A stretch of 15,862 nt of DNA from a virus (Duplodnaviria > Heunggongvirae > Uroviricota > Caudoviricetes). The stretch lies in the IMG/VR virus record IMGVR_UViG_2609460218_000002. One strand, 5' to 3'. Under the pieces are notes generated by a model. The model saw nothing but the letters and a program-made list of their open reading frames with translations, did no database searches and was not told the origin of the DNA. Below are positions 1 to 15,862 of this stretch, in pieces (position 1 is the first letter of the stretch; each line of letters begins with the position of its first letter). The translations under genes were made by a program, and so were the position numbers.

Positions 1-1
1 A

Positions 2-247
2 GCGTTACGGGACAAAGAACGCTTTGACGGTGAAATTTTTGACCTGGACATCTCGCTGGACCATGTTGAAGGTGCCGCGCTGGAGTTTTATGAGGCAGCA
101 GCCAGAAGGAGCATCAGACAGGTCTTCCTGGATGTTGCTGCCGGGTTATGTGAAGGGGACGAGCTGTTGCCAGAAACGCGACCCTGTTCAGAGGCTCGGT
201 ATACCATAAAAATTAACAGTTCAGATAACTCGATTACGGGTTGTTAG
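2..247 (+). CDS. Hypothetical soluble acidic protein, 5' end outside window (possibly YdfR/DUF1327-like)
   Basis: Frame 2 is open from the window edge to TAG at 245-247 (82 codons) and reads as protein-like (ALRDKERFDGEIFDLDISLDHVEGAALEFYEAAARRSIRQVF...). The track ORF 24..209 is in another frame and looks off-frame (W/C-rich). It sits just upstream of the endolysin, where Qin carries ydfR; the family assignment is from memory. Confidence 0.4.
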   Translation, partial: ALRDKERFDGEIFDLDISLDHVEGAALEFYEAAARRSIRQVFLDVAAGLCEGDELLPETRPCSEARYTIKINSSDNSITGC

Positions 248-302
248 CTTTTTGCAGTTGGCTTTCCAGTATCTTTCATTGGTAGCATCCTGATAAATAT
301 CC

Positions 303-1330
<1,028 letters not shown>

Positions 1331-1512
1331 GGTAATATTAAATCGGAACATTTACATCGCGGAATGTAAAATTTAAATAAAAAGGACTCTTCCATGAGCC
1401 AAAATTCCTGAAATCTTAAGGGTAAGATAAAAGGTCTTAATCAGAATGACACGTTTTATTAATAAATAAAGCTATTCTTTCATTGCTGTGTTTTTCTTTA
1501 CAAAAGTAATCC

Positions 1513-1541
1513 TTGCTATGGGTGGTTAATCATGCGTTAAT
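1513..1541 (+). promoter_or_regulatory. Putative sigma70 promoter of the cold-shock gene (-35 TTGCTA, 17-bp spacer, -10 GTTAAT)
   Basis: TTGCTA at 1513-1518 and GTTAAT at 1536-1541, with an AT-rich UP-like tract upstream (about 1440-1512). The predicted start near 1548 leaves a leader of about 145 nt, as expected for CspA-family cold-shock genes. A TATAAT at 1585-1590 is an alternative. Confidence 0.4.
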
Positions 1542-1692
1542 GGTGTTCTGGTTTGTTACAAATTTATCTGAAGCAGTCATTGTTATAATTTTATTATTTG
1601 TACCTCTTGAGATTTCCTTGTTGGTTTTTCTCTCTGATANTTTTTTTCGGACCATTCTGCCCAAGGNCTAATTTCTTCAAAAGGTAATAATT

Positions 1693-1905
1693 ATGTCTAA
1701 CAAAATGACTGGTTTAGTGAAATGGTTTAACCCTGAAAAAGGTTTTGGTTTCATCACGCCGAAAGATGGCAGCAAAGATGTGTTTGTCCATTTCTCAGCA
1801 ATTCAGAGCAACGATTTCAAAACATTAACTGAGAATCAGGAAGTTGAATTTGGTATTGAGAACGGACCTAAAGGTCCTGCCGCTGTTCATGTAGTGGCGC
1901 TTTGA
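1693..1905 (+). CDS. cspI: Cold-shock protein, CspA family (CspI-like)
   Basis: 70 aa. RNP1 (KGFGFI) and RNP2 (VFVHF) cold-shock-domain motifs. SD AAGG 8 nt upstream of ATG. Long AT-rich upstream leader. Gene order Rz - csp - small ORFs - gnsB - ydfO matches Qin, hence cspI rather than another csp paralog. Confidence 0.9.
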
Positions 1906-1993
1906 GGTAGACAATATTACAAACCATATTCACTTTAGATGCCCGTGTTGTCATGGTTCCCAGTATAGAACATCATCTTTTGATGTTTCTGAC

Positions 1994-2104
1994 ATGAATC
2001 CTTTCGGGGCAAAATGTATCTTTTGTAAATCAATGATGATTACATTTGATAATATTTCACAATACTTAAATGCCAGCCGTCTGTCGTTGGATTTAAAAAA
2101 GTGA
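1994..2104 (+). CDS. Small zinc-ribbon-like ORF (CxxC...CxxC); upstream extension likely
   Basis: The frame is open from 1895 to TGA at 2102-2104 and reads ...HFRCPCCHGSQYRTSSFDVSDMNPFGAKCIFCKSMMITFDNISQYLNASRLSLDLKK. Two CxxC pairs about 20 residues apart. The first in-frame ATG (1994) lies after the first CPCC motif and there is no in-frame ATG/GTG/TTG upstream, so the true start is unclear. The ORF ends 7 nt before an intrinsic terminator. Below the track size cut-off. Confidence 0.3.
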   Translation: MNPFGAKCIFCKSMMITFDNISQYLNASRLSLDLKK

Positions 2105-2110
2105 AAATGA

Positions 2111-2132
2111 AGGCTCCTTCGGGAGCTTTTTT
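2111..2132 (+). terminator. Rho-independent terminator ending the cspI transcription unit
   Basis: Stem GCTCC (2113-2117) / GGAGC (2122-2126) with a UUCG tetraloop, extendable by A-U and G-U pairs, followed by TTTTTT (2127-2132). Confidence 0.6.
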
Positions 2133-2176
2133 GCTTGGTGTCTATTCGATGGATACTCACATACTACGGTAACATC

Positions 2177-2407
2177 ATGAAAAAAATCATAGNTTTTTTT
2201 AACTCTGAACCAGCAGTGGTAGTGCCAGCGATGACTGGAGTTAACACCATCATGCGTGAATATCCAAATGGCGAAAAAACACACCTTACTGTAATGGCCG
2301 CAGGGTTTCCATCTCTGACCGGAGATCATAAAGTCATTTATGTAGCCGCGGATCGACATGTTACTTCAGAAGAAATTCTGGAAGCAGCAATAAGGCTCTT
2401 GAGTTGA
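2177..2407 (+). CDS. Hypothetical 76-aa protein (possibly YnfN/YmcE-like, partner of GnsB)
   Basis: Track ORF 2135..2407 begins with TTG inside the terminator T-run, so the ATG at 2177 (MKKII...) is preferred. Protein-like composition. The minus-strand track ORF 2093..2359 is W/C/H-rich and judged spurious. Contains one N (2193). Confidence 0.5.
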   Translation: MKKIIXFFNSEPAVVVPAMTGVNTIMREYPNGEKTHLTVMAAGFPSLTGDHKVIYVAADRHVTSEEILEAAIRLLS

Positions 2408-2501
2408 TTTGATGCTATTGCATTGATAATTCAGGAAAATTCTCTTTGTCTGTTTGTGTAAAATTTAGACTATCGTATGTTGATTATTGCGATGTTTCAT
2501 C

Positions 2502-2530
2502 TTATCTTTTACACGTTTGCACCATATAAT
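2502..2530 (+). promoter_or_regulatory. Putative promoter upstream of the gnsB-like gene (-10 TATAAT at 2525-2530)
   Basis: Perfect TATAAT at 2525-2530. Candidate -35 elements are weak (TTATCT at 2502-2507 with 17-bp spacing; TTTACA at 2508-2513 with too-short spacing). Confidence 0.3.
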
Positions 2531-2578
2531 CGACTTACTGTGTAACTGGAAAGTCATAACAGACTAAAAGAGGAAATG

Positions 2579-2752
2579 ATGAATATTGAAAACTTAAAAA
2601 CAAAAGCAGAAGCAGATATTTCTGAATATATAACAAAAAAAATTATTGAACTTAAGAAAAAGACCGGGAAAGAAGTTACCAGTATTCAGTTTACCGCACG
2701 GGAAAAAATGACGGGTCTTGAAAGCTATGATGTCAAGATTAATTTAATCTGA
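2579..2752 (+). CDS. gnsB: GnsA/GnsB-family small protein
   Basis: 57 aa: MNIENLKTKAEADISEYITKKIIELKKKTGKEVTSIQFTAREKMTGLESYDVKINLI. Tandem ATGs at 2576 and 2579, with AGAGGA SD best spaced for 2579. I recognise the GnsA/GnsB family by its conserved C-terminal REKMTGLESYDVKI motif. Not in the ORF track (below size cut-off). Confidence 0.8.
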   Translation: MNIENLKTKAEADISEYITKKIIELKKKTGKEVTSIQFTAREKMTGLESYDVKINLI

Positions 2753-2781
2753 TGTATTCAATAATAAAATTTATCCATAAA

Positions 2782-2805
2782 CCTCGTTTTTACGGGGTTT
2801 TGTTA
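2782..2805 (+). terminator. Putative rho-independent terminator after the gnsB-like gene
   Basis: Stem CCTCGT (2782-2787) / ACGGGG (2792-2797) with one G-U pair, loop TTTT, then a T-rich tract. Confidence 0.5.
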
Positions 2806-2866
2806 TATTTGAATGGTTCCGAATATCTAAATCACAATTGTTGATGGTTTTTATTAAACCAATGCA

Positions 2867-2895
2867 GTCCGGCTCAGGAGTGAGAGAAGCCGGAC
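2867..2895 (-). terminator. Hairpin directly after the ydfO-like stop (candidate terminator for the minus-strand unit)
   Basis: 8-bp perfect inverted repeat GTCCGGCT (2867-2874) / AGCCGGAC (2888-2895) with a 13-nt loop, 8 nt beyond the minus-strand stop codon. The downstream U-tract on the minus strand is weak. Confidence 0.4.
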
Positions 2896-2903
2896 GTTAT
2901 GGT

Positions 2904-3314
2904 TTAGCGTGGTAAGATCTGTGTAGTTTTCTGGATGCTTTCAGTAAATAGTAATGAATTATCAAAGGTATAGTAATATCTTTTTTGTTCGTGGATATTT
3001 GTAACCCACCGAAAAACTCCTGCTTTAGCAAGGTTTCTTCTGTATTCCTGAAATGTGATCTCTCTGGATTTCAGCTTATTAGAGGTCGTTTCTATAAGAT
3101 GCCTATCCTTTGAAAATTTGACAGACACAATGTTTTTTAGGCCCTTTAATAACACTGTATTATCATTTTTTAATACAATATGAACATTCTCTGTGGCTAA
3201 ATAGTAAATGTAATGTGAGACATTGTGACGTTTTAGCTCAGAATAAAACCATTGATAGTTTAAATCGTTTCGAACTTTATCAAATATTTGTTTAAAAATG
3301 ACTACCTGATCCAT
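2904..3314 (-). CDS. ydfO: YdfO-like protein (DUF1398 family), function unknown
   Basis: Track ORF 2904..3329 (141 aa). A GGAAGG SD sits 7 nt upstream of the second ATG (3314), so a 136-aa product is preferred. The sequence ([40 protein letters not shown]...) matches my recollection of E. coli YdfO from Qin. Confidence 0.8.
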
Positions 3315-3371
3315 AGATAAACCTTCCATGTGATATGAGGGGGCGTAGTCTGCACGATTATCTAAATTTCT

Positions 3372-3605
3372 TCAATCTGGTCTGACCTGTTTTCTGAGCA
3401 ATTCAGTAATGTCACTCTTTTCTTTGTTTGCTTCAGAAGAAACTCTTTTTTCTGAGCACAGTCTCCGGCGGCAGGCTTCAATGACCCAGGCTGAGAAATT
3501 CCCGGACCCTTTTTGCTCAAGAGCGATGTTAATTTGTTCAATCATTTGGTTAGGAAAGCGGATGTTGCGGGTTGTTGTTCTGCGGGTTCTGTTCTTCGTT
3601 GACAT
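3372..3605 (-). CDS. DUF3950-family small DNA-binding protein with predicted ribbon-helix-helix fold (YlcI/YnfO-like)
   Basis: 77 aa. Basic N-terminus (MSTKNRTRRTTTRNIRF) followed by a strand-helix-helix pattern (NIRFPNQ / MIEQINIALEQ / NFSAWVIEACRRRL), consistent with an Arc/CopG-like RHH fold. Co-oriented with and 57 bp upstream of the ydfO-like gene. Matches my recollection of YlcI/YnfO proteins found next to nohD/nohQ in K-12 prophages. Confidence 0.8.
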   Translation of the reverse strand: MSTKNRTRRTTTRNIRFPNQMIEQINIALEQKGSGNFSAWVIEACRRRLCSEKRVSSEANKEKSDITELLRKQVRPD

Positions 3606-3699
3606 GAGGTTGTCCCGTATTCAGTGTCGCTGATTTGTATTGTCTGAAGTTGTTTTTACGTTAAGTTGATGCAGATCAATTAATACGATATCTGCGTCA

Positions 3700-3990
3700 T
3701 AATTGATTATTTGACGTGGTTTGATTGCGTAGATGCACGTTGTGACATGCAGATGATAATTATTATCATTTTGCGGGTCCTTTCCGGCGATCCGACAGGT
3801 TACGGGGCGGCGCCTCGCGGGTTTTCGCTATTTATGAAAATTTTCCGGTTTAAGGCATTTCCGTTCTTCTTCGTCGTAACTTAATGTTTTTATTTAAAAT
3901 ACCCCCTGAAAAGAAAGGAAACGACAGGTGCTGAAAACGAGCTTTTGGGCCTCTGTCGTTTCCTTTCTCTGTTTTTGGCCGTGGAATGAA
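3700..3990 (+). other. cos site of lambda type (cosQ, cosN, cosB with Nu1-binding R elements)
   Basis: 3640-3803 matches the lambda right end (...GGGTCCTTTCCGGCGATCCGACAGGTTACG). cosN at about 3805-3815 reads GGGCGGCG-CCT against the lambda cohesive end GGGCGGCGACCT. Downstream, AAAGGAAACGACAG (3914-3927) and its inverted copy CTGTCGTTTCCTTT (3953-3966) correspond to the Nu1-binding R3/R2 elements. A 17-bp palindrome ATGATAATTATTATCAT lies at 3752-3768. The internal cos shows prophage or concatemer topology. Confidence 0.85.
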
Positions 3991-3992
3991 CA

Positions 3993-4512
3993 ATGGAAGT
4001 CAACAAAAAGCAGCTGGCTGACATTTTCGGTGCGAGTATCCGTACCATTCAGAACTGGCAGGAACAGGGAATGCCCGTTCTGCGAGGCGGTGGCAAGGGT
4101 AATGAGGTGCTTTATGACTCTGCCGCCGTTATAAGATGGTATGCCGAAAGGGATGCTGAAATTGAGAACGAAAAGCTGCGCCGGGAAGTTGAAGAACTGC
4201 GGCAGGCCAGCGAGACAGATCTCCAGCCAGGGACTATTGAGTACGAACGCCATCGACTTACGCGTGCGCAGGCCGACGCACAGGAGCTGAAAAATGCCAG
4301 AGACTCCGCTGAAGTGGTGGAAACCGCATTCTGTACTTTCGTGCTGTCGCGGATCGCAGGTGAAATTGCCAGTATTCTCGACGGGATCCCCCTGTCGGTG
4401 CAGCGGCGTTTTCCGGAACTGGAAAACCGACATGTTGATTTCCTGAAACGGGATATCATCAAAGCCATGAACAAAGCAGCCGCGCTGGATGAACTGATAC
4501 CGGGGTTGCTGA

Positions 4513-4538
<26 letters not shown>
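3993..4538 (+). CDS. nu1: Terminase small subunit Nu1
   Basis: 181 aa, near-identical to lambda gpNu1 as I recall it (MEVNKKQLADIFGASIRTIQNWQEQGMPVLRGGGKGNEV...; N-terminal HTH DNA-binding domain), with only a few substitutions. Directly downstream of cosB. Confidence 0.97.
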
Positions 4539-8219
<3,681 letters not shown>

Positions 8220-8239
<20 letters not shown>

Positions 8240-9539
8240 TCTCCCGCATATTGCCAGCATGGCTTTTAATGAGCCGCTGATGCTTGAACCCGCCTATGCG
8301 CGGGTTTTCTTTTGTGCGCTTGCAGGCCAGCTTGGGATCAGCCGCCTGACGGATGCGGTGTCCGGCGACAGCCTGACTGCCCAGGAGGCACTCGCGACGC
8401 TGGCATTATCCGGTGATGATGACGGACCACGACAGGCCCGCAGTTATCAGGTCATGAACGGCATCGCCGTGCTGCCGGTGTCCGGCACGCTGGTCAGCCG
8501 GACGCGGGCGCTGCAGCCGTACTCGGGGATGACCGGTTACAACGGCATTATCGCCCGTCTGCAACAGGCTGCCAGCGATCCGATGGTGGACGGCATTCTG
8601 CTCGATATGGACACGCCCGGCGGGATGGTGGCGGGGGCATTTGACTGCGCTGACATCATCGCCCGTGTGCGTGACATAAAGCCGGTATGGGCGCTGGCCA
8701 ATGACATGAACTGCAGCGCAGGTCAGCTGCTTGCCAGTGCCGCCTCCCGGCGTCTGGTCACGCAGACCGCCCGAACAGGCTCCATCGGCGTCATGATGGC
8801 TCACAGTAATTACGGCGCTGCACTGGAGAAACAGGGCGTGGAAATCACGCTGATTTACAGCGGCAGCCATAAGGTGGATGGCAACCCCTACAGCCATCTA
8901 CCGGATGATGTCCGGGAAACATTGCAGTCCCGGATGGATGCAACCCGCCGGATGTTTGCACAGAAGGTGTCGGCATATACCGGCCTGTCCGTGCAGGCTG
9001 TGCTGGATACCGAGGCTGCAGTGTACAGCGGTCAGGAGGCCATTGATGCCGGACTGGCTGATGAACTTGTCAACAGCACCGATGCGATCACCGTTATGCG
9101 TGATGCACTGGATGCACGTAAATCCCGTCTCTCAGGAGGGCGAATGACCAAAGAGACTCAATCAACAACTGTTTCAGCCACTGCTTCGCAGGCTGACGTT
9201 ACTGACGTGGTGCCAGCGACGGAGGGCGAAAACGCCAGCGCGGCGCAGCCGGACGTGAACGCGCAGATCACCGCTGCGGTTGCGGCAGAAAACAGCCGCA
9301 TTATGGGGATCCTCAACTGTGAGGAGGCTCACGGACGCGAAGAACAGGCCCGCGTGCTGGCAGAAACCCCCGGTATGACCGTGGAAACGGCCCGCCGCAT
9401 TCTGGCAGCTGCACCACAGAGTGCACAGGCGCGCAGTGACACTGCGCTGGATCGTCTGATGCAGGGGGCACCGGCACCGCTGGCTGCAGGTAACCCGGCA
9501 TCTGATGCCGTTAACGATTTGCTGAACACACCAGTGTAA
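8220..9539 (+). CDS. C: Head maturation protease C (S49/ClpP-like capsid assembly protease)
   Basis: GTG start at 8220 (MTAELRNLPHIASMAFNEPL...), 439 aa, matching lambda gpC. Overlaps the B stop. The track ORF 8085..9539 over-extends the start upstream. Confidence 0.95.
9144..9539 (+). CDS. nu3: Scaffolding protein Nu3, in-frame internal initiation within C
   Basis: Strong internal SD AGGAGG (9134-9139) 4 nt before ATG 9144 (MTKETQSTTVSATASQ...), same frame and same stop as C. An alternative internal in-frame ATG is at 8934; I am not certain which is the annotated lambda nu3 start. Confidence 0.6.
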   Translation: MTKETQSTTVSATASQADVTDVVPATEGENASAAQPDVNAQITAAVAAENSRIMGILNCEEAHGREEQARVLAETPGMTVETARRILAAAPQSAQARSDTALDRLMQGAPAPLAAGNPASDAVNDLLNTPV

Positions 9540-9548
9540 GGGATGTTT

Positions 9549-9881
9549 ATGACGAGCAAAGAAACCTTTACCCATTACCAGCCGCTGGGCAATAGTGACC
9601 CGGCTCATACCGCAACCGCGCCCGGCGGATTGAGTGCGAAAGCGCCTGCAATGACCCCGCTGATGCTGGACACATCCACCCGTAAGCTGGTTGCGTGGGA
9701 TGGCACCACCGACGGTGCTGCCGTTGGCATTCTTGCGGTTGCTGCTGACCAGACCAGCACCACACTGACGTTCTACAAGTCCGGCACGTTCCGTTATGAG
9801 GATGTGCTCTGGCCGGAGGCTGCCAGCGACGAGACGAAAAAACGGACCGCGTTTGCCGGAACGGCAATCAGCATCGTTTAA
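9549..9881 (+). CDS. D: Head decoration protein D
   Basis: 110 aa ([52 protein letters not shown]...), matching lambda gpD. SD AGGGA 6 nt upstream. The track ORF starts two codons early. Confidence 0.95.
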
Positions 9882-9901
9882 CTTTACCCTTCATCACTAA
9901 A

Positions 9902-9924
9902 GGCCGCCTGTGCGGNCTTTTTTT
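9902..9924 (+). terminator. GC-rich hairpin plus T-run between D and E (terminator-like)
   Basis: GGCCGC (9902-9907) / GCGGNC (9912-9917) with loop CTGT, followed by TTTTTTT. One stem base is N (9916), and another N lies at 9931. Confidence 0.45.
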
Positions 9925-9938
9925 ACGGGANTTTTTTT

Positions 9939-10964
9939 ATGTCGATGTACACAACCGCCCAGCTGCTGGCGGCAAATGAGCAGAAATTTAAGTTTGATCC
10001 GCTGTTTCTGCGTCTCTTTTTCCGTGAGAGCTATCCCTTCACTACGGAGAAAGTCTATCTCTCACAAATTCCGGGACTGGTAAACATGGCGCTGTACGTT
10101 TCGCCGATTGTTTCCAGTGAGGTTATCCGTTCCCGTGGCGGCTCCACCTCTGAATTTACGCCGGGATATGTCAAACCCAAGCATGAGTTGAATCCGCAGA
10201 TGACCCTGCGTCGCCTGCCGGATGAAGATCCGCAGAATCTGGCGGACCCGGCTTACCGCCGCCGTCGCATCATCATGCAGAACATGCGTGACGAAGAGCT
10301 GGCCATTGCTCAGGTCGAAGAGATGCAGGCAGTTTCTGCCGTGCTCAAGGGCAAATACACCATGACCGGTGAAGCCTTCGATCCGGTTGAGGTGGATATG
10401 GGCCGCAGTGCGGCGAACAACATCACACAGTCCGGCGTCACGGAGTGGAGCAAGCGTGACAAGTCCACGTATGACCCGACCGACGATATCGAAGCCTACG
10501 CGCTGAACGCCAGCGGTGTGGTGAATATCATCGTGTTTGACCCGAAAGGCTGGGCGCTGTTCCGTTCCTTCAAAGCCGTCAAGGAGAAGCTGGATACCCG
10601 TCGCGGCTCTCATTCCGAGCTGGAGACAGCGGTGAAAGACCTGGGCAAAGCGGTGTCCTATAAGGGAATGTATGGCGATGTGGCCATCGTCGTGTATTCC
10701 GGACAGTACGTGGAAAACGGCGTCAAAAAGAACTTCCTGCCGGACAACACGATGGTGCTGGGGAACACTCAGGCTCGCGGTCTGCGCACCTATGGCTGCA
10801 TTCAGGATGCGGACGCACAGCGCGAAGGCATTAACGCCTCTGCCCGTTACCCGAAAAACTGGGTGACCACCGGCGATCCGGCGCGTGAGTTCACCATGAT
10901 TCAGTCAGCACCGCTGATGCTGCTGGCTGACCCTGATGAGTTCGTGTCCGTTCAACTGGCGTAA
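9939..10964 (+). CDS. E: Major capsid protein E
   Basis: 341 aa (MSMYTTAQLLAANEQKFKFDPLFLRLFFRESYPFTTEKVYLSQIPGLVNMALYV...), matching lambda gpE. Confidence 0.97.
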   Translation: MSMYTTAQLLAANEQKFKFDPLFLRLFFRESYPFTTEKVYLSQIPGLVNMALYVSPIVSSEVIRSRGGSTSEFTPGYVKPKHELNPQMTLRRLPDEDPQNLADPAYRRRRIIMQNMRDEELAIAQVEEMQAVSAVLKGKYTMTGEAFDPVEVDMGRSAANNITQSGVTEWSKRDKSTYDPTDDIEAYALNASGVVNIIVFDPKGWALFRSFKAVKEKLDTRRGSHSELETAVKDLGKAVSYKGMYGDVAIVVYSGQYVENGVKKNFLPDNTMVLGNTQARGLRTYGCIQDADAQREGINASARYPKNWVTTGDPAREFTMIQSAPLMLLADPDEFVSVQLA

Positions 10965-11005
10965 TCATGGCCCTTCGGGGCCATTTTCTCTCTGTGGAGG
11001 AGTTC

Positions 11006-11404
11006 ATGACGAAAGATGAACTGATTGCCCGTCTTCAGGAGCTGGGTGAGCAACTGAACCGCGATGTCAGTTTGACGGGAACGAAAGAAGAACTGGCGCT
11101 TCGTGTGGCAGAGCTGGAAGAAGAGCTTGATGACACGGATGAAACTGCCGGTCAGGACACCCCTCTCAGCCGGGAAAATGTGCTGACCGGGCATGAAAAT
11201 GAGGTGGTATCAGCGCAGCCGGATACCGTGATTCAGGATACGGCTGAACTGGTCACGGTCGTGGCACTGGTGACGCTGCATACTGATGCACTTCACGCCA
11301 CGCGGGATAAACCTGTGGCATTTGTGCTGCCGGGAACGGCGTTTCGTGTCTCTGCCGGTGTGGCAGCCGAAATGACAGAGCGCGGCCTGGCCAGAATGCA
11401 ATAA
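11006..11404 (+). CDS. FI: DNA packaging protein FI
   Basis: Start at ATG 11006 (MTKDELIARLQELGEQLNRDVSLTGTKEELALRVAELEEELDD...) with GGAGG SD 5 nt upstream; 132 aa as in lambda gpFI. The track ORF 10967..11404 begins at an upstream in-frame ATG without an SD. Confidence 0.93.
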   Translation: MTKDELIARLQELGEQLNRDVSLTGTKEELALRVAELEEELDDTDETAGQDTPLSRENVLTGHENEVVSAQPDTVIQDTAELVTVVALVTLHTDALHATRDKPVAFVLPGTAFRVSAGVAAEMTERGLARMQ

Positions 11405-11415
11405 CGGGAGGCGCT

Positions 11416-11769
11416 GTGGCTGATTTCGATAACCTGTTCGATGCTGCCATTGCCCGCGCCGATGAAACGATACGCGGGTACATGGGAACGTCAGCCACCA
11501 TTACATCCGGTGAGCAGTCAGGTGCGGTGATACGTGGTGTTTTTGATGACCCTGAAAATATCAGCTATGCCGGACAGGGCGTGCGCGTTGAAGGCTCCAG
11601 CCCGTCCCTGTTTGTCCGGACTGATGATGCGCGGCAGCTGCGGCGTGGAGACACGCTGACCATCGGTGAGGAAAATTTCTGGGTAGATCGGGTTTCGCCG
11701 GATGATGGCGGAAGTTGTCATCTCTGGCTTGGACGGGGCGTACCGCCTGCCGTTAACCGTCGCCGCTGA
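11416..11769 (+). CDS. FII: Head-tail connector (head completion) protein FII
   Basis: 117 aa, GTG start, matching lambda gpFII (MADFDNLFDAAIARADETIRGYMGTSATITSGEQSG...). Confidence 0.95.
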   Translation: MADFDNLFDAAIARADETIRGYMGTSATITSGEQSGAVIRGVFDDPENISYAGQGVRVEGSSPSLFVRTDDARQLRRGDTLTIGEENFWVDRVSPDDGGSCHLWLGRGVPPAVNRRR

Positions 11770-11780
11770 AAGGGGGATGT

Positions 11781-12358
11781 ATGGTCATAAAAGGTCTTGA
11801 GCAGGCCGTTGAAAACCTCAGCCGTATCAGCAAAACGGCGGTGCCTGGTGCCGCCGCAATGGCCATTAACCGCGTTGCTTCATCCGCGATATCGCAGTCG
11901 GCGTCACAGGTTGCCCGTGAGACAAAGGTACGCCGGAAACTGGTAAAGGAAAGGGCCAGGCTGAAAAGGGCCACGGTCAAAAATCCGCAGGCCAGAATCA
12001 GGTTAACCGGGGGGATTTGCCCGTAATAAAGCTGGGTAACGCGCGGATTGTCCTGTCCCGACGCAGGCATCGTAAAAAGGGGCAGCGTTCANGCCTGAAA
12101 GGTGGCGGCAGCGTGCTTGTGGTGGGAAACCGTCGTATTCCCGGCGCGTTTATTCAGCAACTGAAAAATGGCCGCTGGCATGTCATGCAGCGTGTGGCCG
12201 GGAAAAACCGTTACCCCATTGATGTGGTGAAAATCCCGATGGCGGTGCCGCTGACCACGGCGTTTAAACAGAATATTGAACGGATACGGCGTGAACGTCT
12301 TCCGAAAGAGCTGGGCTATGCGCTGCAGCATCAACTGAGAATGGTAATAAAGCGATGA
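11781..12358 (+). pseudogene. Z: Tail completion protein Z, interrupted by an apparent 1-nt frameshift at about 12000
   Basis: Track ORF 11781..12026 matches the gpZ N-terminus up to ...NPQARI, then terminates. The remainder (...VNRGDLPVIKLGNARIVLSRRR...LRMVIKR) continues in the +2 frame through 12358. One N at 12092. May be a sequence error. Confidence 0.8.
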
Positions 12359-12750
12359 AACATACTGAACTCCGTGCAGCCGTACTGGATGCACTGGAGA
12401 AGCATGACACCGGGGCGACGCTTTTTGATGGTCGCCCCGCTGTTTTTGATGAGGCGGATTTTCCGGCAATTGCCGTTTATCTCACCGGCGCTGAATACAC
12501 GGGCGAAGAGCTGGACAGCGATACCTGGCAGGCGGAGCTGCATATTGAAGTTTTCCTGCCTGCTCAGGTGCCGGATTCAGAGCTGGATTCGTGGATGGAG
12601 TCCCGGATTTATCCGGTGATGAGCGATATCCCGGCACTGTCAGATTTGATCACCAGTATGGTGGCCAGCGGCTATGACTACCGGCGCGACGATGATGCGG
12701 GCCTGTGGAGTTCAGCCGATCTGACTTATGTCATTACCTATGAAATGTGA
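12355..12750 (+). CDS. U: Tail terminator (tail tube terminator) protein U
   Basis: 131 aa (MKHTELRAAVLDALEKHDTGATLFDGRPAVFDEADFPAIAVYLTGAEYTGEELDSD...), matching lambda gpU. ATGA overlap with the end of Z. Confidence 0.95.
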   Translation: MKHTELRAAVLDALEKHDTGATLFDGRPAVFDEADFPAIAVYLTGAEYTGEELDSDTWQAELHIEVFLPAQVPDSELDSWMESRIYPVMSDIPALSDLITSMVASGYDYRRDDDAGLWSSADLTYVITYEM

Positions 12751-12757
12751 GGACGCT

Positions 12758-13498
12758 ATGCCTGTACCAAATCCAGTAATGCCGGTGAAAGGGGCCGGGA
12801 CCACACTGTNGGTTTATAAGGGGAACGGTGANCCTTATGCGAACCCGCTTTCAGACGTTGACTGGTCGCGTCTGGCTAAAGTTAAAGACCTGACGCCCGG
12901 CGAACTGACCGCTGAGTCCTATGACGACAGCTATCTCGATGATGAAGATGCGGACTGGACTGCGACCGGGCAGGGGCAGAAATCTGCCGGAGATACCAGC
13001 TTCACGCTGGCGTGGATGCCCGGAGAGCAGGGGCAGCAGGCGCTGCTGGCGTGGTTTAATGAAGGGGATACCCGAGCCTATAAAATCCGCTTCCCGAATG
13101 GCACGGTCGATGTGTTCCGCGGCTGGGTCAGCAGTATCGGTAAGGCGGTGACGGCGAAGGAAGTGATCACCCGCACGGTGAAGGTCACCAATGTGGGCCG
13201 TCCGTCGATGGCAGAAGATCACAGCACGGTCACAGCGGCAACCGGCATGACCGTGACGCCTGCCAGCACCTCGGTGGTGAAAGGGCAGAGCACCACGCTG
13301 ACCGTGGCATTCCAGCCGGAAGGCGCAACCGACAAGAGCTTCCGTGCGGTGTCAGCGGATAAAACAAAAGCCACCGTGTCGGTCAGTGGTATGACCATCA
13401 CCGTGAAAGGTGTTGCTGCAGGCAAGGTCAACATTCCGGTCGTATCCGGTAATGGTGAACTTGCTGCGGTTGCAGAAATCAACGTCACCGCCAGTTAA
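12758..13498 (+). CDS. V: Major tail tube protein V (with C-terminal Ig-like domain)
   Basis: Start at ATG 12758 ([17 protein letters not shown]...), 246 aa as in lambda gpV. C-terminal part is Thr/Val-rich, Ig-like. Two N at 12810 and 12832. The track ORF begins at an upstream in-frame ATG. Confidence 0.95.
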
Positions 13499-13513
13499 TC
13501 CGGAGAGTCAGCG

Positions 13514-13936
13514 ATGTTCCTGAAAACCGAATCATTTGAACATAACGGTGTGACCGTCACGCTTTCTGAACTGTCAGCCCTGCAGCGTATTGAGCATCTC
13601 GNCCTGATGAAACGGCAGGCAGAACAGGCGGAGTCAGACAGCAACCGGAAGTTTACTGTGGAAGACGCCATCAGAACCGGTGCTTGTGTGGTGGCGATGT
13701 CCCTGTGGCATAACCATCCGCAGAAGACGCAGATGCCTTCCATGAATGAAGCCGTTAAACAGATTGAGCAGGAAGTGCTTACCACCTGGCCTACAGAGGC
13801 AATTTCTCATGCTGAAAACGTGGTGTACCGGCTGTCCGGTATGTATGAGTTTGTGGTGAATGATGCCCCTGAACAGGCAGAGGACGCCGGGCCTGCAGAG
13901 CCTGTTTCTGCGGGAAAGTGTTCGACGGTGAGCTGA
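13514..13936 (+). CDS. G: Tail assembly chaperone G
   Basis: 140 aa (MFLKTESFEHNGVTVTLSELSALQRIEHL...), matching lambda gpG. One N at 13602. Confidence 0.95.
   Translation: MFLKTESFEHNGVTVTLSELSALQRIEHLXLMKRQAEQAESDSNRKFTVEDAIRTGACVVAMSLWHNHPQKTQMPSMNEAVKQIEQEVLTTWPTEAISHAENVVYRLSGMYEFVVNDAPEQAEDAGPAEPVSAGKCSTVS
13912..13918 (+). promoter_or_regulatory. Programmed -1 ribosomal frameshift slippery heptamer GGGAAAG (G to G-T fusion)
   Basis: GGGAAAG at 13912-13918 near the 3' end of G, where the -1 frame (T) is open. This is the conserved tail-chaperone frameshift of lambda-like phages. Confidence 0.85.
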
Positions 13937-14352
13937 GTTTTGCCCTGAAACTGGCGCGCGAGATGGGGCGACCCGACTGGCGTGCCATGCTTGCCGGGAT
14001 GTCATCCACGGAGTATGCCGACTGGCACCGCTTTTACAGTACCCATTATTTTCATGATGTTCTGCTGGATATGCACTTTTCCGGGCTGACGTACACCGTG
14101 CTCAGCCTGTTTTTCAGCGATCCGGATATGCATCCGCTGGATTTCAGTCTGCTGAACCGGCGCGAGGCTGACGAAGAGACTGAAGATGATGTGCTGATGC
14201 AGAAAGCGGCAGGGCTTGCCGGAGGCGTTCGTTTTGGCCCGGACGGGAATGAAGTTATCCCCGCTTCCCCGGATGTGGCGGACATGACGGAGGATGACGT
14301 AATGCTGATGACAGTATCAGAAGGGATCGCAGGAGGAGTCCGGTATGGCTGA
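13918..14352 (+). CDS. T: T segment of the G-T tail assembly chaperone fusion (expressed by -1 frameshift from G)
   Basis: Open -1 frame 13918..14352 matching lambda gpT (…LSFALKLAREMGRPDWRAMLAGMSSTEYADWHRFYSTHYF...). No independent initiation expected. Confidence 0.9.
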   Translation: MFDGELSFALKLAREMGRPDWRAMLAGMSSTEYADWHRFYSTHYFHDVLLDMHFSGLTYTVLSLFFSDPDMHPLDFSLLNRREADEETEDDVLMQKAAGLAGGVRFGPDGNEVIPASPDVADMTEDDVMLMTVSEGIAGGVRYG

Positions 14353-15655
14353 ACCGGTAGGCGATCTGGTCGTTGATTTAAGTCTGGATGCGGCCAGATT
14401 TGACGAGCAGATGGCCAGAGTCAGGCGTCATTTTTCCGGTACGGAAACTGATGCGAAAAAAACAGCGGCAGTCGTTGAACAGTCGCTGAGCCGACAGGCG
14501 CTGGCTGCACAGAAAGCGGGGATTTCCGTCGGGCAGTATAAAGCCGCCATGCGTATGCTGCCTGCACAGTTCACCGACGTGGCCACGCAGCTTGCAGGCG
14601 GGCAAAGTCCGTGGCTGATCCTGCTGCAACAGGGTGGTCAGGTTAAGGACTCCTTCGGCGGGATGATCCCCATGTTCAGGGGGCTTGCCGGTGCGATCAC
14701 CCTGCCGATGGTGGGGGCCACCTCGCTGGCGGTGGCGACCGGTGCGCTGGCGTATGCCTGGTATCAGGCAACTCAACCCTGTCCGATTTCAACAAAACGC
14801 TGGTCCTTTCCGGCAATCAGGCGGGACTGACGGCAGATCGTATTCTGGCCCTGTCCAGAGCCGGGCAGGCGGCAGGGCTGACGTTTAACCAGACCAGCGA
14901 GTCACTGACGGCGCTGGTGAATGCCGGTGTGCGTGGTGGTGAGCAGTTTGAGGCGATCAGCCAGAGTGTGGCGCGTTTCTCCTCTGCATCCGGCGTGGAG
15001 GTGGACAAGGTCGCTGAAGCCTTCGGGAAGCTGACCACAGACCCGACGTCGGGACTGACAGCGATGGCACGTCAGTTCCATAACGTGACGGCGGAGCAGA
15101 TTGCGTATGTTGCTCAGTTGCAGCGTTCCGGAGATGAAGCCGGGGCATTGCAGGCGGCGAACGAGGCCGCAACGAAAGGGTTTGATGACCAGACCCGCCG
15201 CCTGAAAGAGAACATGGGCACGCTGGAGACCTGGGCAGACAGGACAGCACGGGCATTCAAATCCATGTGGGATTCGGTGCTGGATATTGGTCGCCCGGAC
15301 ACTGCCCAGGGAATGCTGGAGAAAGCAGAAAAGGCTTTTGATGAGGCGGACAAAAAATGGCAGTGGTATCAGAGCCGAAGCCACCGGCGCGGTAAAACCT
15401 CAGCATTTCTTGCCAATCTCCGGGGAGCATGGGAGGACAGAGCGAATGCGCAACTTNGGCTTTCAGCCGCCACGTTGCAGGCCGATCTTGAAAAGGCCAG
15501 AGAGATGGCAGCAAAGGACTGGGCCGAGTCTGAGGCATCACGGCTGAAATATACCGAAGAGGCGCAGAAGGCTTACGAACGCCTGCAGACGCCGCTGGAG
15601 AAATATACCGCCCGTCAGGAAGAACTGAACAAGGCACTGAAAGACGGGAAAATCC
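14345..15655 (+). pseudogene. H: Tail tape measure protein H, disrupted by an apparent 1-nt frameshift (about 14767) and truncated by IS1 insertion at 15656
   Basis: Track ORF 14345..14830 matches the lambda gpH N-terminus to ...AYAWYQ. The gpH sequence (GNSTLSDFNKTLVLSGNQAGLTADR...) then continues in the -1 frame, which the track picks up as ORF 14917..15660. That frame ends at a TAG (15658-15660) created by the IS1 terminal repeat, about 437 codons into a gene that is about 853 codons in lambda. One N at 15457. Confidence 0.85.
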
Positions 15656-15862
15656 GGTAGTGACTCCAACTTACTGATAGTGTTTTATGTTCAGATAATG
15701 CCCGATGACCTTGTCATGCAGCTCCACCGATTTTGAGAACGACAGCGACTTCCGTCCCAGCCTTGCCAGATGTTGTCTCAGATTCAGATTATGTCGCTCA
15801 ATGCGCTGAGTGTAACGCTTGCTGATAACGTGCAGCTTTCCCTTCAGGCGTGATTCATACAG
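15656..15862 (-). mobile_element. IS1 insertion sequence, partial (right end, inverted; continues beyond window)
   Basis: From 15656 the sequence GGTAGTGACTCCAACTTACTGATAGTGTTTTATGTTCAGATAATGCCCGATGAC... is the reverse complement of the IS1 right terminus, including the terminal inverted repeat and the insB 3' end, with a few substitutions relative to canonical IS1. Lambda-like H sequence stops exactly at this point. Confidence 0.9.
15671..15862 (-). CDS. insB: IS1 transposase InsB, C-terminal portion (5' end outside window)
   Basis: Minus-strand translation ends ...[15 protein letters not shown] with stop (TAA, reverse complement of 15671-15673), as I recall for the IS1 InsB C-terminus. No start in window, so not in the ORF track. 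Confidence 0.8.

Follow-up and report, generated by a model that had tools for sequence, protein, structure and literature searches.

Between its lysis genes and its cos site, the 15,862-nt stretch of caudoviral DNA analyzed herein (IMG/VR record IMGVR_UViG_2609460218_000002; hereafter, the window) carries a 2,310-bp interval (1331-3640) of cargo genes, and the question raised by this locus is what that cargo is and whether it marks anything new. The initial annotation had read the interval as a Qin-like moron island that replaced the lambda bor region, and as a likely hotspot at which novel accessory functions are to be expected. Our results indicate, instead, that the interval is, on its sequence, the already annotated accessory gene cluster of the Escherichia coli cryptic prophage Qin, a known and ordinary element. 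We consider it very likely that the best explanation for the whole is a standard moron island of Qin-type lambdoid prophages, composed of a cold-adaptation cassette (cspI to gnsB) and an ynfO-ydfO gene pair. As a textbook Qin accessory cluster, the stretch would hold no new gene, system, or recombination event, and it matters mainly for correct annotation.

The identification rests on a single long alignment and on the proteins encoded within it. Specifically, window positions 293-4521 matched the Qin prophage of K-12 MG1655, from rrrQ to nohA, as a single collinear block (98.7% identity over 4,230 columns; blastn). All seven Qin-island genes were found, in the order and orientation of the K-12 b1548-b1554 region, and their products (CspI, YnfQ, YnfR, YnfN, GnsB, YdfO, and YnfO) all matched their K-12 counterparts at 100% identity along the aligned length. 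The flanks were also those expected of a Qin island, with rrrQ-rzpQ/rzoQ on one side and cos-nohA (a Nu1 homologue) on the other, both within the same block. Thus, the Qin-like label proposed initially was borne out in content, gene order, and protein sequences; the six open reading frames (ORFs) it was based on (a csp gene, a zinc-ribbon gene, a 76-aa ORF, gnsB, ydfO, and a DUF3950 gene) all exist, and a 21-aa gene, ynfR, is annotated as a seventh. K-12 Qin differs in that it is deleted from within nohA onward and fused to stfQ, whereas the window keeps lambda-type head and tail genes up to H.

A still longer match was provided by PhiR42_1 (PV340562.1), a complete phage record of 48,668 bp whose host is E. 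coli ECOR13. This phage has the island of the window together with lysis genes of the Qin type and structural genes of the lambda type, and it was collinear with the window across 293-15329 at 97.7% identity and across 1331-3992 at 99.7%. Such collinearity with one known phage is the result that the initial annotation had itself named as refuting its proposal, and it runs counter to the reading of this arrangement as distinctive. PhiR42_1 deviates from the window in having an intact cosN, an intact H, no insertion sequence IS1, and a K-12-type ydfR 3' end. A literature search on the PhiR phage series returned nothing usable.

The island is also widespread in its host species. Of 5,426 complete E. 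coli genomes, 1,494, more than a quarter, contained at least 80% of its length, and 1,065 records were at least 99% identical to it; RefSeq annotates in those genomes the order cspI, ymcF/ynfQ, ynfR, ynfN, gnsB, ydfO, ynfO, and nohA, followed by intact lambda-type head genes. In strain S1, the Qin-like prophage adjoins ydfJ, which is the Qin site of K-12. An assembly chimera was rejected, as some 1,500 complete genomes have this arrangement in one uninterrupted piece. The lambda/DLP12-type Rz-to-cos interval is of similar frequency: it was covered to at least 80% in 939 of the 5,426 E. coli genomes, and the Qin and lambda types are, judged from these alignments, two common alternative fillings of the interval.

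The initial annotation had also called for a survey of the Rz-cos position across lambdoid phages, and differing fillings were indeed observed. The interval holds bor, ybcV, ybcW, and orf64 in lambda; bor and orf64 only in PhiR34_1; small ORFs, ydfO, and an ynfO-like gene in Kati; cspI, ynfN, and gnsB, downstream of Qin-type lysis genes and with ydfO absent, in 2H10; and unrelated small ORFs in phiSTEC1575-Stx2k, in which homology to the window starts only at about 3754. In the Shiga toxin (Stx) phage 2851, a KilA-N gene, a hypothetical gene, and a DUF3950 gene are followed by HNH/TerS/TerL genes. This small survey suggests that the Rz-to-cos interval is built of independently assorting sub-modules, namely bor, the csp-gns block, DUF1398, ybcW, and DUF3950.

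In lambdoid phages, a moron, as described by Juhala and Hendrix, lies between genes that are adjacent or differently filled in relatives, differs from them in base composition, and has a promoter and a terminator of its own. As to placement, 2H10 and PhiR42_1 carry the cspI-gnsB block and lambda, PhiR34_1, and Kati do not, with the same cos in all of them. As to base composition, the guanine-cytosine content of the island differs from that of the neighboring phage genes, being 29-44% across 1201-3750, compared with values of 53-57% for the head and 45-52% for the lysis genes. The claim that the cargo has its own promoters and terminators gained only partial support: a match to the cspA leader and terminator-like hairpins at 2111-2132 and 2779-2800 speak for it, but a sigma-70 scan gave nothing above chance.

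Relative to lambda, the window is mosaic, as had been proposed, but the boundaries lie elsewhere than initially placed. Before position 2885, the window had no lambda nucleotide match (blastn), and lambda S, R, Rz, Bor, and YbcW found nothing there by tblastn (E<=0.01); bor, expected between Rz and cos, was found nowhere in the window by either Bor tblastn (E<=0.01) or blastn. A first block of lambda homology (2885-3388; 84.2% identity, blastn) covers the DUF1398 gene, a 54-bp segment (3389-3442) then takes the position that 613 bp, ybcW among them, occupy in lambda, and a high-identity block (3443-15329; 97.5%, blastn) starts within the DUF3950 gene and contains cos and nohA/Nu1. The genes from cos onward are thus lambda-like, as claimed (Nu1 is 98% identical at the protein level), and the lysis genes are of another lineage, lambda S, R, and Rz being unmatched by blastn and tblastn (E<=0.01) where the window has a PF00959 lysozyme and a DUF2514 Rz-type gene. 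The resumption of lambda sequence, however, had been put at around 3640, which is off by about 200 bp for the high-identity block and by about 750 bp for the moderately similar one.

This shift changes the list of genes that can be said to replace bor. The non-lambda part is 1331-2884 only, so that cspI-ynfQ-ynfR-ynfN-gnsB occupy what is the bor position in lambda and DLP12, and not the six genes first counted. The other two, ydfO and the DUF3950 gene, have lambda homologues at the same place: in lambda/DLP12, as in the window, the interval separates the spanin genes from cos and includes genes of the DUF1398 and DUF3950 families, with protein identities of 76% and, over 57 aa, 93%, respectively; cos/Nu1 is shared at 97-98%. 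A hairpin downstream of ydfO (2858-2893; -17.9 kcal/mol, z=-4.8) coincides with the left breakpoint, and the starts of matches in other phages cluster at 2866/2885, at 3443, and at about 3747, positions that are module edges. The analysis therefore yields a corrected lambda/Qin boundary map, with boundaries at 2885 and 3388/3443 and, as seen in other phages, module edges at 2866 and about 3747. Recombination of lambda with cos-proximal homology in the cryptic prophage DLP12 has been shown experimentally (PMC545071).

The non-lambda block (1331-2884) has the appearance of a cassette for cold adaptation, and the cspG-ymcF-gnsA genes of the chromosome are its paralogues. The K-12 cluster cspG-ymcF-ymcE-gnsA has the same order as the island (csp, zinc-ribbon small protein, small ORF, gns), with protein identities of 79% for CspI/CspG, 66% for YnfQ/YmcF, and 64% for GnsB/GnsA. 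The likeness does not extend to the small ORFs, as YnfN and YmcE are unrelated, with 14 residues in common across the 87 columns of their alignment, and ynfR has no annotated counterpart in the cspG cluster, which, unlike the island, has no phage lysis or packaging genes at its flanks.

At the head of the cassette, cspI (1693-1905, + strand; 70 aa) encodes a CspA-family cold-shock protein (PF00313, E=1.6e-31; 70/70 residues identical to K-12 CspI) that scored against the NCBIfam CspG and CspA models at E=1e-40 and 1.8e-37, slightly under their equivalog cut-offs. It is preceded by a cspA-type 5' leader (1547-1692, + strand), recognized through the Rfam cspA thermoregulator RF01766, whose full model (1-428) matched 1547-1932 at 107.9 bits (gathering threshold 78; E=9e-28). 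This match places the transcription start near 1547, and a cspA-like promoter, read by eye as TTGCTA-17 nt-TGcGTTAAT, may lie at 1513-1541, a site that the consensus promoter scan missed. A minus-strand ORF at 1530-1664, annotated in PhiR42_1, overlaps the leader and was regarded as spurious.

Downstream, ynfQ (1916-2104, + strand) encodes a 62-aa YmcF-like zinc-ribbon protein (PF23641, E=6.9e-32; 62/62 residues as in K-12) and starts with an ATT codon 10 nt past the cspI stop. For ynfQ (1916-1918) as for the chromosomal ymcF, the annotated start is an Ile codon that lies 10 nt beyond the stop of the csp gene before it, which looks like a conserved non-canonical start arrangement. Spaced by 2-4 nt in tandem after ynfQ are ynfR and ynfN. 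The first (2107-2172, + strand) encodes a 21-aa protein whose translation, MKAPSGAFLLGVYSMDTHILR, equals the published YnfR sequence (PMC6001520), and it contains the terminator-like hairpin and U-run at 2111-2132 (-13 kcal/mol). The second (2177-2407, + strand; phrog_3425, E=4.4e-53) is 76 aa long in most genomes, while the K-12 annotation corresponds to its last 51 aa (51/51 residues identical); YnfN had no Pfam match, even at E<=10, and no match in a PDB sequence search. The last gene, gnsB (2576-2752, + strand; 58 aa), matched PF08178 over positions 1-54 of its 54-position profile (E=3.3e-35), shares 57/57 residues with K-12 GnsB, and matches the GnsA structures 4XO1/4XO2 at E about 1e-19. 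For gnsB, a perfect TATAAT can be read at 2525-2530, and the intrinsic-terminator-like hairpin at 2779-2800 lies on its 3' side. PADLOC reported no defence system in the island, its generic CSD_V model matching CspI only and leaving the other five proteins unmatched.

Published work ties several of these genes to cold. SPA-tagged YnfR rose strongly after cold shock (PMC6001520), and ynfQ is given as "cold shock induced" in a study in which cspI, ynfQ, and ynfN were induced 6.5-, 5.9-, and 5.8-fold, with an SspA dependence of 38-, 42-, and 51-fold, respectively (PMC11228462). Plasmids carrying gnsA or gnsB rescue a low-temperature growth defect tied to low unsaturated fatty acids (bioRxiv 10.1101/2024.03.27.586906), and, as that preprint relates from Sugai et al. 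2001, unsaturated fatty acids rise upon gnsA/gnsB overexpression.

Taken with the layout of the cassette, these observations suggest how the island may work. The island sits between the Qin lysis cassette (essQ-ydfR-rrrQ-rzpQ/rzoQ) and the lambda-type cos/Nu1 packaging module, and cspI would probably be transcribed from the cspA-like promoter through the long thermosensing leader, such that a temperature downshift may stabilize the cspI mRNA and allow its translation. Given the 10-nt and 2-4-nt spacings, cspI-ynfQ-ynfR-ynfN are probably co-transcribed, with read-through of the weak hairpin; the simplest model would be a cspI-ynfQ transcript with partial read-through into ynfR-ynfN. As overproduced GnsB raises unsaturated fatty acids, a membrane-fluidity function seems plausible for it. 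In the cold, the cassette could thereby provide the lysogen with an RNA chaperone and a membrane-fluidity factor, whether or not the prophage is induced. In the lytic cycle, Q-antiterminated late transcription would run through the cassette toward cos, as the lambda pR' transcript suggests by analogy. The ynfO-ydfO genes form a second part (2885-3605, - strand) that is also found in lambda and is not a replacement.

Several points weigh against this interpretation. The sigma-70 consensus scan gave four sites where 8.4 are expected by chance, a lack of enrichment that leaves independent transcription of gnsB and of ynfO-ydfO putative. Cold is not the sole signal, given that DNA damage caused by azidothymidine also induces cspI, ynfQ, and ynfN (PMC11228462). 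The lipid effect of GnsB is known from overexpression, not from native levels, and the Pfam and RefSeq label of the protein as an "addiction module toxin" differs from its reading as a lipid regulator. Further, YnfN, YdfO, and YnfO are without a known biochemical function, despite being part of a very common E. coli island, and the prophage of this strain is decayed.

The two genes on the opposite strand offer the main opening for another interpretation. The first, ynfO (3372-3605, - strand; 77 aa), belongs to the DUF3950 YlcI/YnfO family (PF13132, E=2.7e-21; NF041551). All 77 of its residues are identical to K-12 YnfO, and it is 93% identical to lambda orf64 over 57 aa, its N-terminal 57 codons being common to lambda and its C-terminal part Qin-specific. 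No second Pfam family was found for YnfO at E<=10, and a PDB sequence search was empty. A ribbon-helix-helix fold stays conjectural, as it had only an RNIRFP-helix-helix pattern to go by and the AlphaFold2 single-sequence model (mean predicted local distance difference test, pLDDT, 56.7; predicted template modeling score, 0.30) was too poor for a fold search. The second, ydfO (2904-3329, - strand; 141 aa), is a DUF1398 gene (PF07166, E=1.7e-46) homologous to ybcV of lambda and DLP12; its product is identical to K-12 YdfO at 136/136 residues, 76% identical to the lambda YbcV-like protein, and matched by the PDB entry 2HH8 (annotated "ydfO") at E=2e-90, a solved structure with no assigned activity. 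The DUF1398 protein is named "putative envelope protein" in older records, and a literature search on ydfO/DUF1398 function returned nothing usable. Since only 42 nt, free of any hairpin or other structure, separate ynfO from ydfO, the two genes probably form one operon.

The alternative that survives best is that the island, or at least ynfO-ydfO, serves the phage, with the DUF3950 protein as a DNA-binding regulator, the DUF1398 protein in a late or packaging role, and the csp gene aiding late expression or antitermination in the cold. It draws on the position of the DUF3950 gene, which lies antisense and immediately in front of the packaging genes not only in lambda, Qin, PhiR34_1, and Kati but even in 2851, and on the 97% conservation of its 5' half between the lambda and Qin types, where the flanks vary. 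Csp proteins have, moreover, been described as antiterminators and nucleic-acid chaperones (PMC11228462). A label of "head protein" attached to DUF1398 by PHROG 413 also fits, but it is a bare family label for which no supporting evidence was seen, and the poor YnfO model (pLDDT 56.7) leaves a DNA-binding fold a guess. Other phages count against the proposal as well: phiSTEC1575-Stx2k has the same cos/Nu1 without the DUF3950 gene and 2H10 lacks ydfO, and lambda is not known to require the Rz-to-cos region for its growth. We therefore regard a role in the phage cycle as rather unlikely.

The narrower form of this idea, to which we give little chance, is that the DUF3950 gene (ynfO/ylcI/orf64), alone or with DUF1398, is not cargo but a conserved small regulator upstream of the packaging module. 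If true, it might govern how late transcription enters the cos/terminase region, or what is expressed there in the prophage state. The unusually conserved position and 5' half of the gene, for which no function is known, leave the idea a small probability. As separate observations, the gene stands antisense directly upstream of packaging genes with unrelated terminases, namely Nu1/A in lambda and HNH/TerS/TerL in phage 2851 (3414-3641), and the "head protein" label of DUF1398 recurs, beyond PHROG 413, in several phage records, including RefSeq lambda.

It seems quite improbable that gnsB, perhaps with a neighboring small gene, is a toxin-antitoxin module that stabilizes the prophage. The proposal follows from names, as PF08178 is called "GnsA/GnsB toxin of bacterial toxin-antitoxin system" and RefSeq uses "GnsA/GnsB family addiction module toxin". 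However, YmcE has been proposed as the partner of GnsA, and it is not homologous to YnfN, which stands in its position here; no antitoxin candidate was identified beside gnsB; and gnsA/gnsB plasmids rescue growth and do not kill (bioRxiv 10.1101/2024.03.27.586906). Least credible of all is that the joint is distinctive, with Qin-like cargo having recently replaced the lambda bor region at a hotspot for novel accessory functions: the window is mosaic against lambda (nothing before 2885, then 84%, then 97.5%), and phages with the same cos (lambda, PhiR34_1, Kati, 2H10, and phiSTEC1575-Stx2k) differ in Rz-cos content, but the joint is shared base for base by K-12 Qin, PhiR42_1, and some 1,500 complete E. 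coli genomes, which makes it old and widespread and not an event of this window, its breakpoint was misplaced at 3640, two of the six "replacing" genes are common to lambda, and every gene already has a RefSeq name (YdfO and the GnsB paralogue GnsA even have solved structures), with only the generic CSD match from PADLOC to add.

The lysis genes beside the island are likewise of the Qin type. An rrrQ-type lysozyme (303-836, + strand; PF00959, E=1.2e-24) shares 168/177 residues with K-12 RrrQ, has no tblastn match to lambda R, and carries an N-terminal hydrophobic stretch that is consistent with a signal-arrest-release endolysin. It is followed by rzpQ (833-1330, + strand), an Rz-type DUF2514 gene (PF10721, E=5.5e-39; 164/165 residues as in K-12 RzpQ), and by the Rz1-type lipoprotein gene rzoQ, which lies inside rzpQ in another frame (1026-1280, coordinates mapped from the K-12 annotation); the ORF in the rzoQ frame (1008-1280) has a lipobox-like LTSC.

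Upstream of these lies the 3' end portion of a lysis-cassette gene of the YdfR family (2-247, + strand), annotated as "YdfR family protein" in E. coli strain S1. Blastn matches to Qin and PhiR42_1 in this region were confined to 1-138 (88%) and to 293 onward. The bases between (139-292), which comprise the ydfR 3' end and the spacer before rrrQ, differ from both K-12 Qin and PhiR42_1, so that the window carries a different ydfR allele, and they are, as aligned, a second small mosaic patch within the lysis cassette. The window gene stops at 247 and leaves a 55-nt gap, whereas K-12 ydfR overlaps rrrQ. Over window positions 1-400, E. coli genomes among those listed, S1 for example, showed 100% identity, and 49 records reached 99% or more.

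On the other side of the island, nohA/Nu1 (3993-4538, + strand) matched PF07471 at E=2.4e-101, but cos itself is altered. In cosN (3805-3815), one A is absent after 3812, such that the 12-nt cohesive end GGGCGGCGACCT reads GGGCGGCG-CCT. The A is kept in lambda, K-12 Qin, PhiR42_1, and E. coli strain ECNB21, and a comparison of window 3770-3850 with 8,311 cos places in complete E. coli genomes gave no match at 99% or more. Either the deletion is a mutation private to this copy, and inactivating, or it arose as an error of sequencing. Just upstream of Nu1, a match to the Rfam family mir-578 (3909-3971; 24 bits against a gathering threshold of 98, E=0.44) was dismissed as chance; the inverted repeat there is conserved in lambda, and we take it to be a cosB R-site repeat.

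Further changes are seen in the tail genes. A 1-base deletion relative to lambda occurs at 11999 in tail gene Z, whose ORF restarts at 12017, and another at 14766 in the tape-measure gene H leads to a stop at 14830, such that both genes are frameshifted as written. The window also contains 12 N (1059, 1640, 1667, 2193, 6357, 9916, 9931, 12092, 12810, 12832, 13602, and 15457), two of which (9916 and 9931) are extra bases relative to lambda, and this suggests a sequence of limited quality. The window is thus either a decaying prophage or a lower-quality sequence, and in neither case does it, as it stands, represent an active phage. An IS1-like end (15657-15862) also interrupts H, with lambda H homology stopping at 15655, and the IS1-like segment is found on many plasmids and, in E. 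coli genomes, at 10 places each (median). Finally, about 200 bp within H (15330-15529) align to neither lambda nor PhiR42_1, though their flanks do; they occur at 99.9% identity in other E. coli prophages and look like a variable tape-measure segment.

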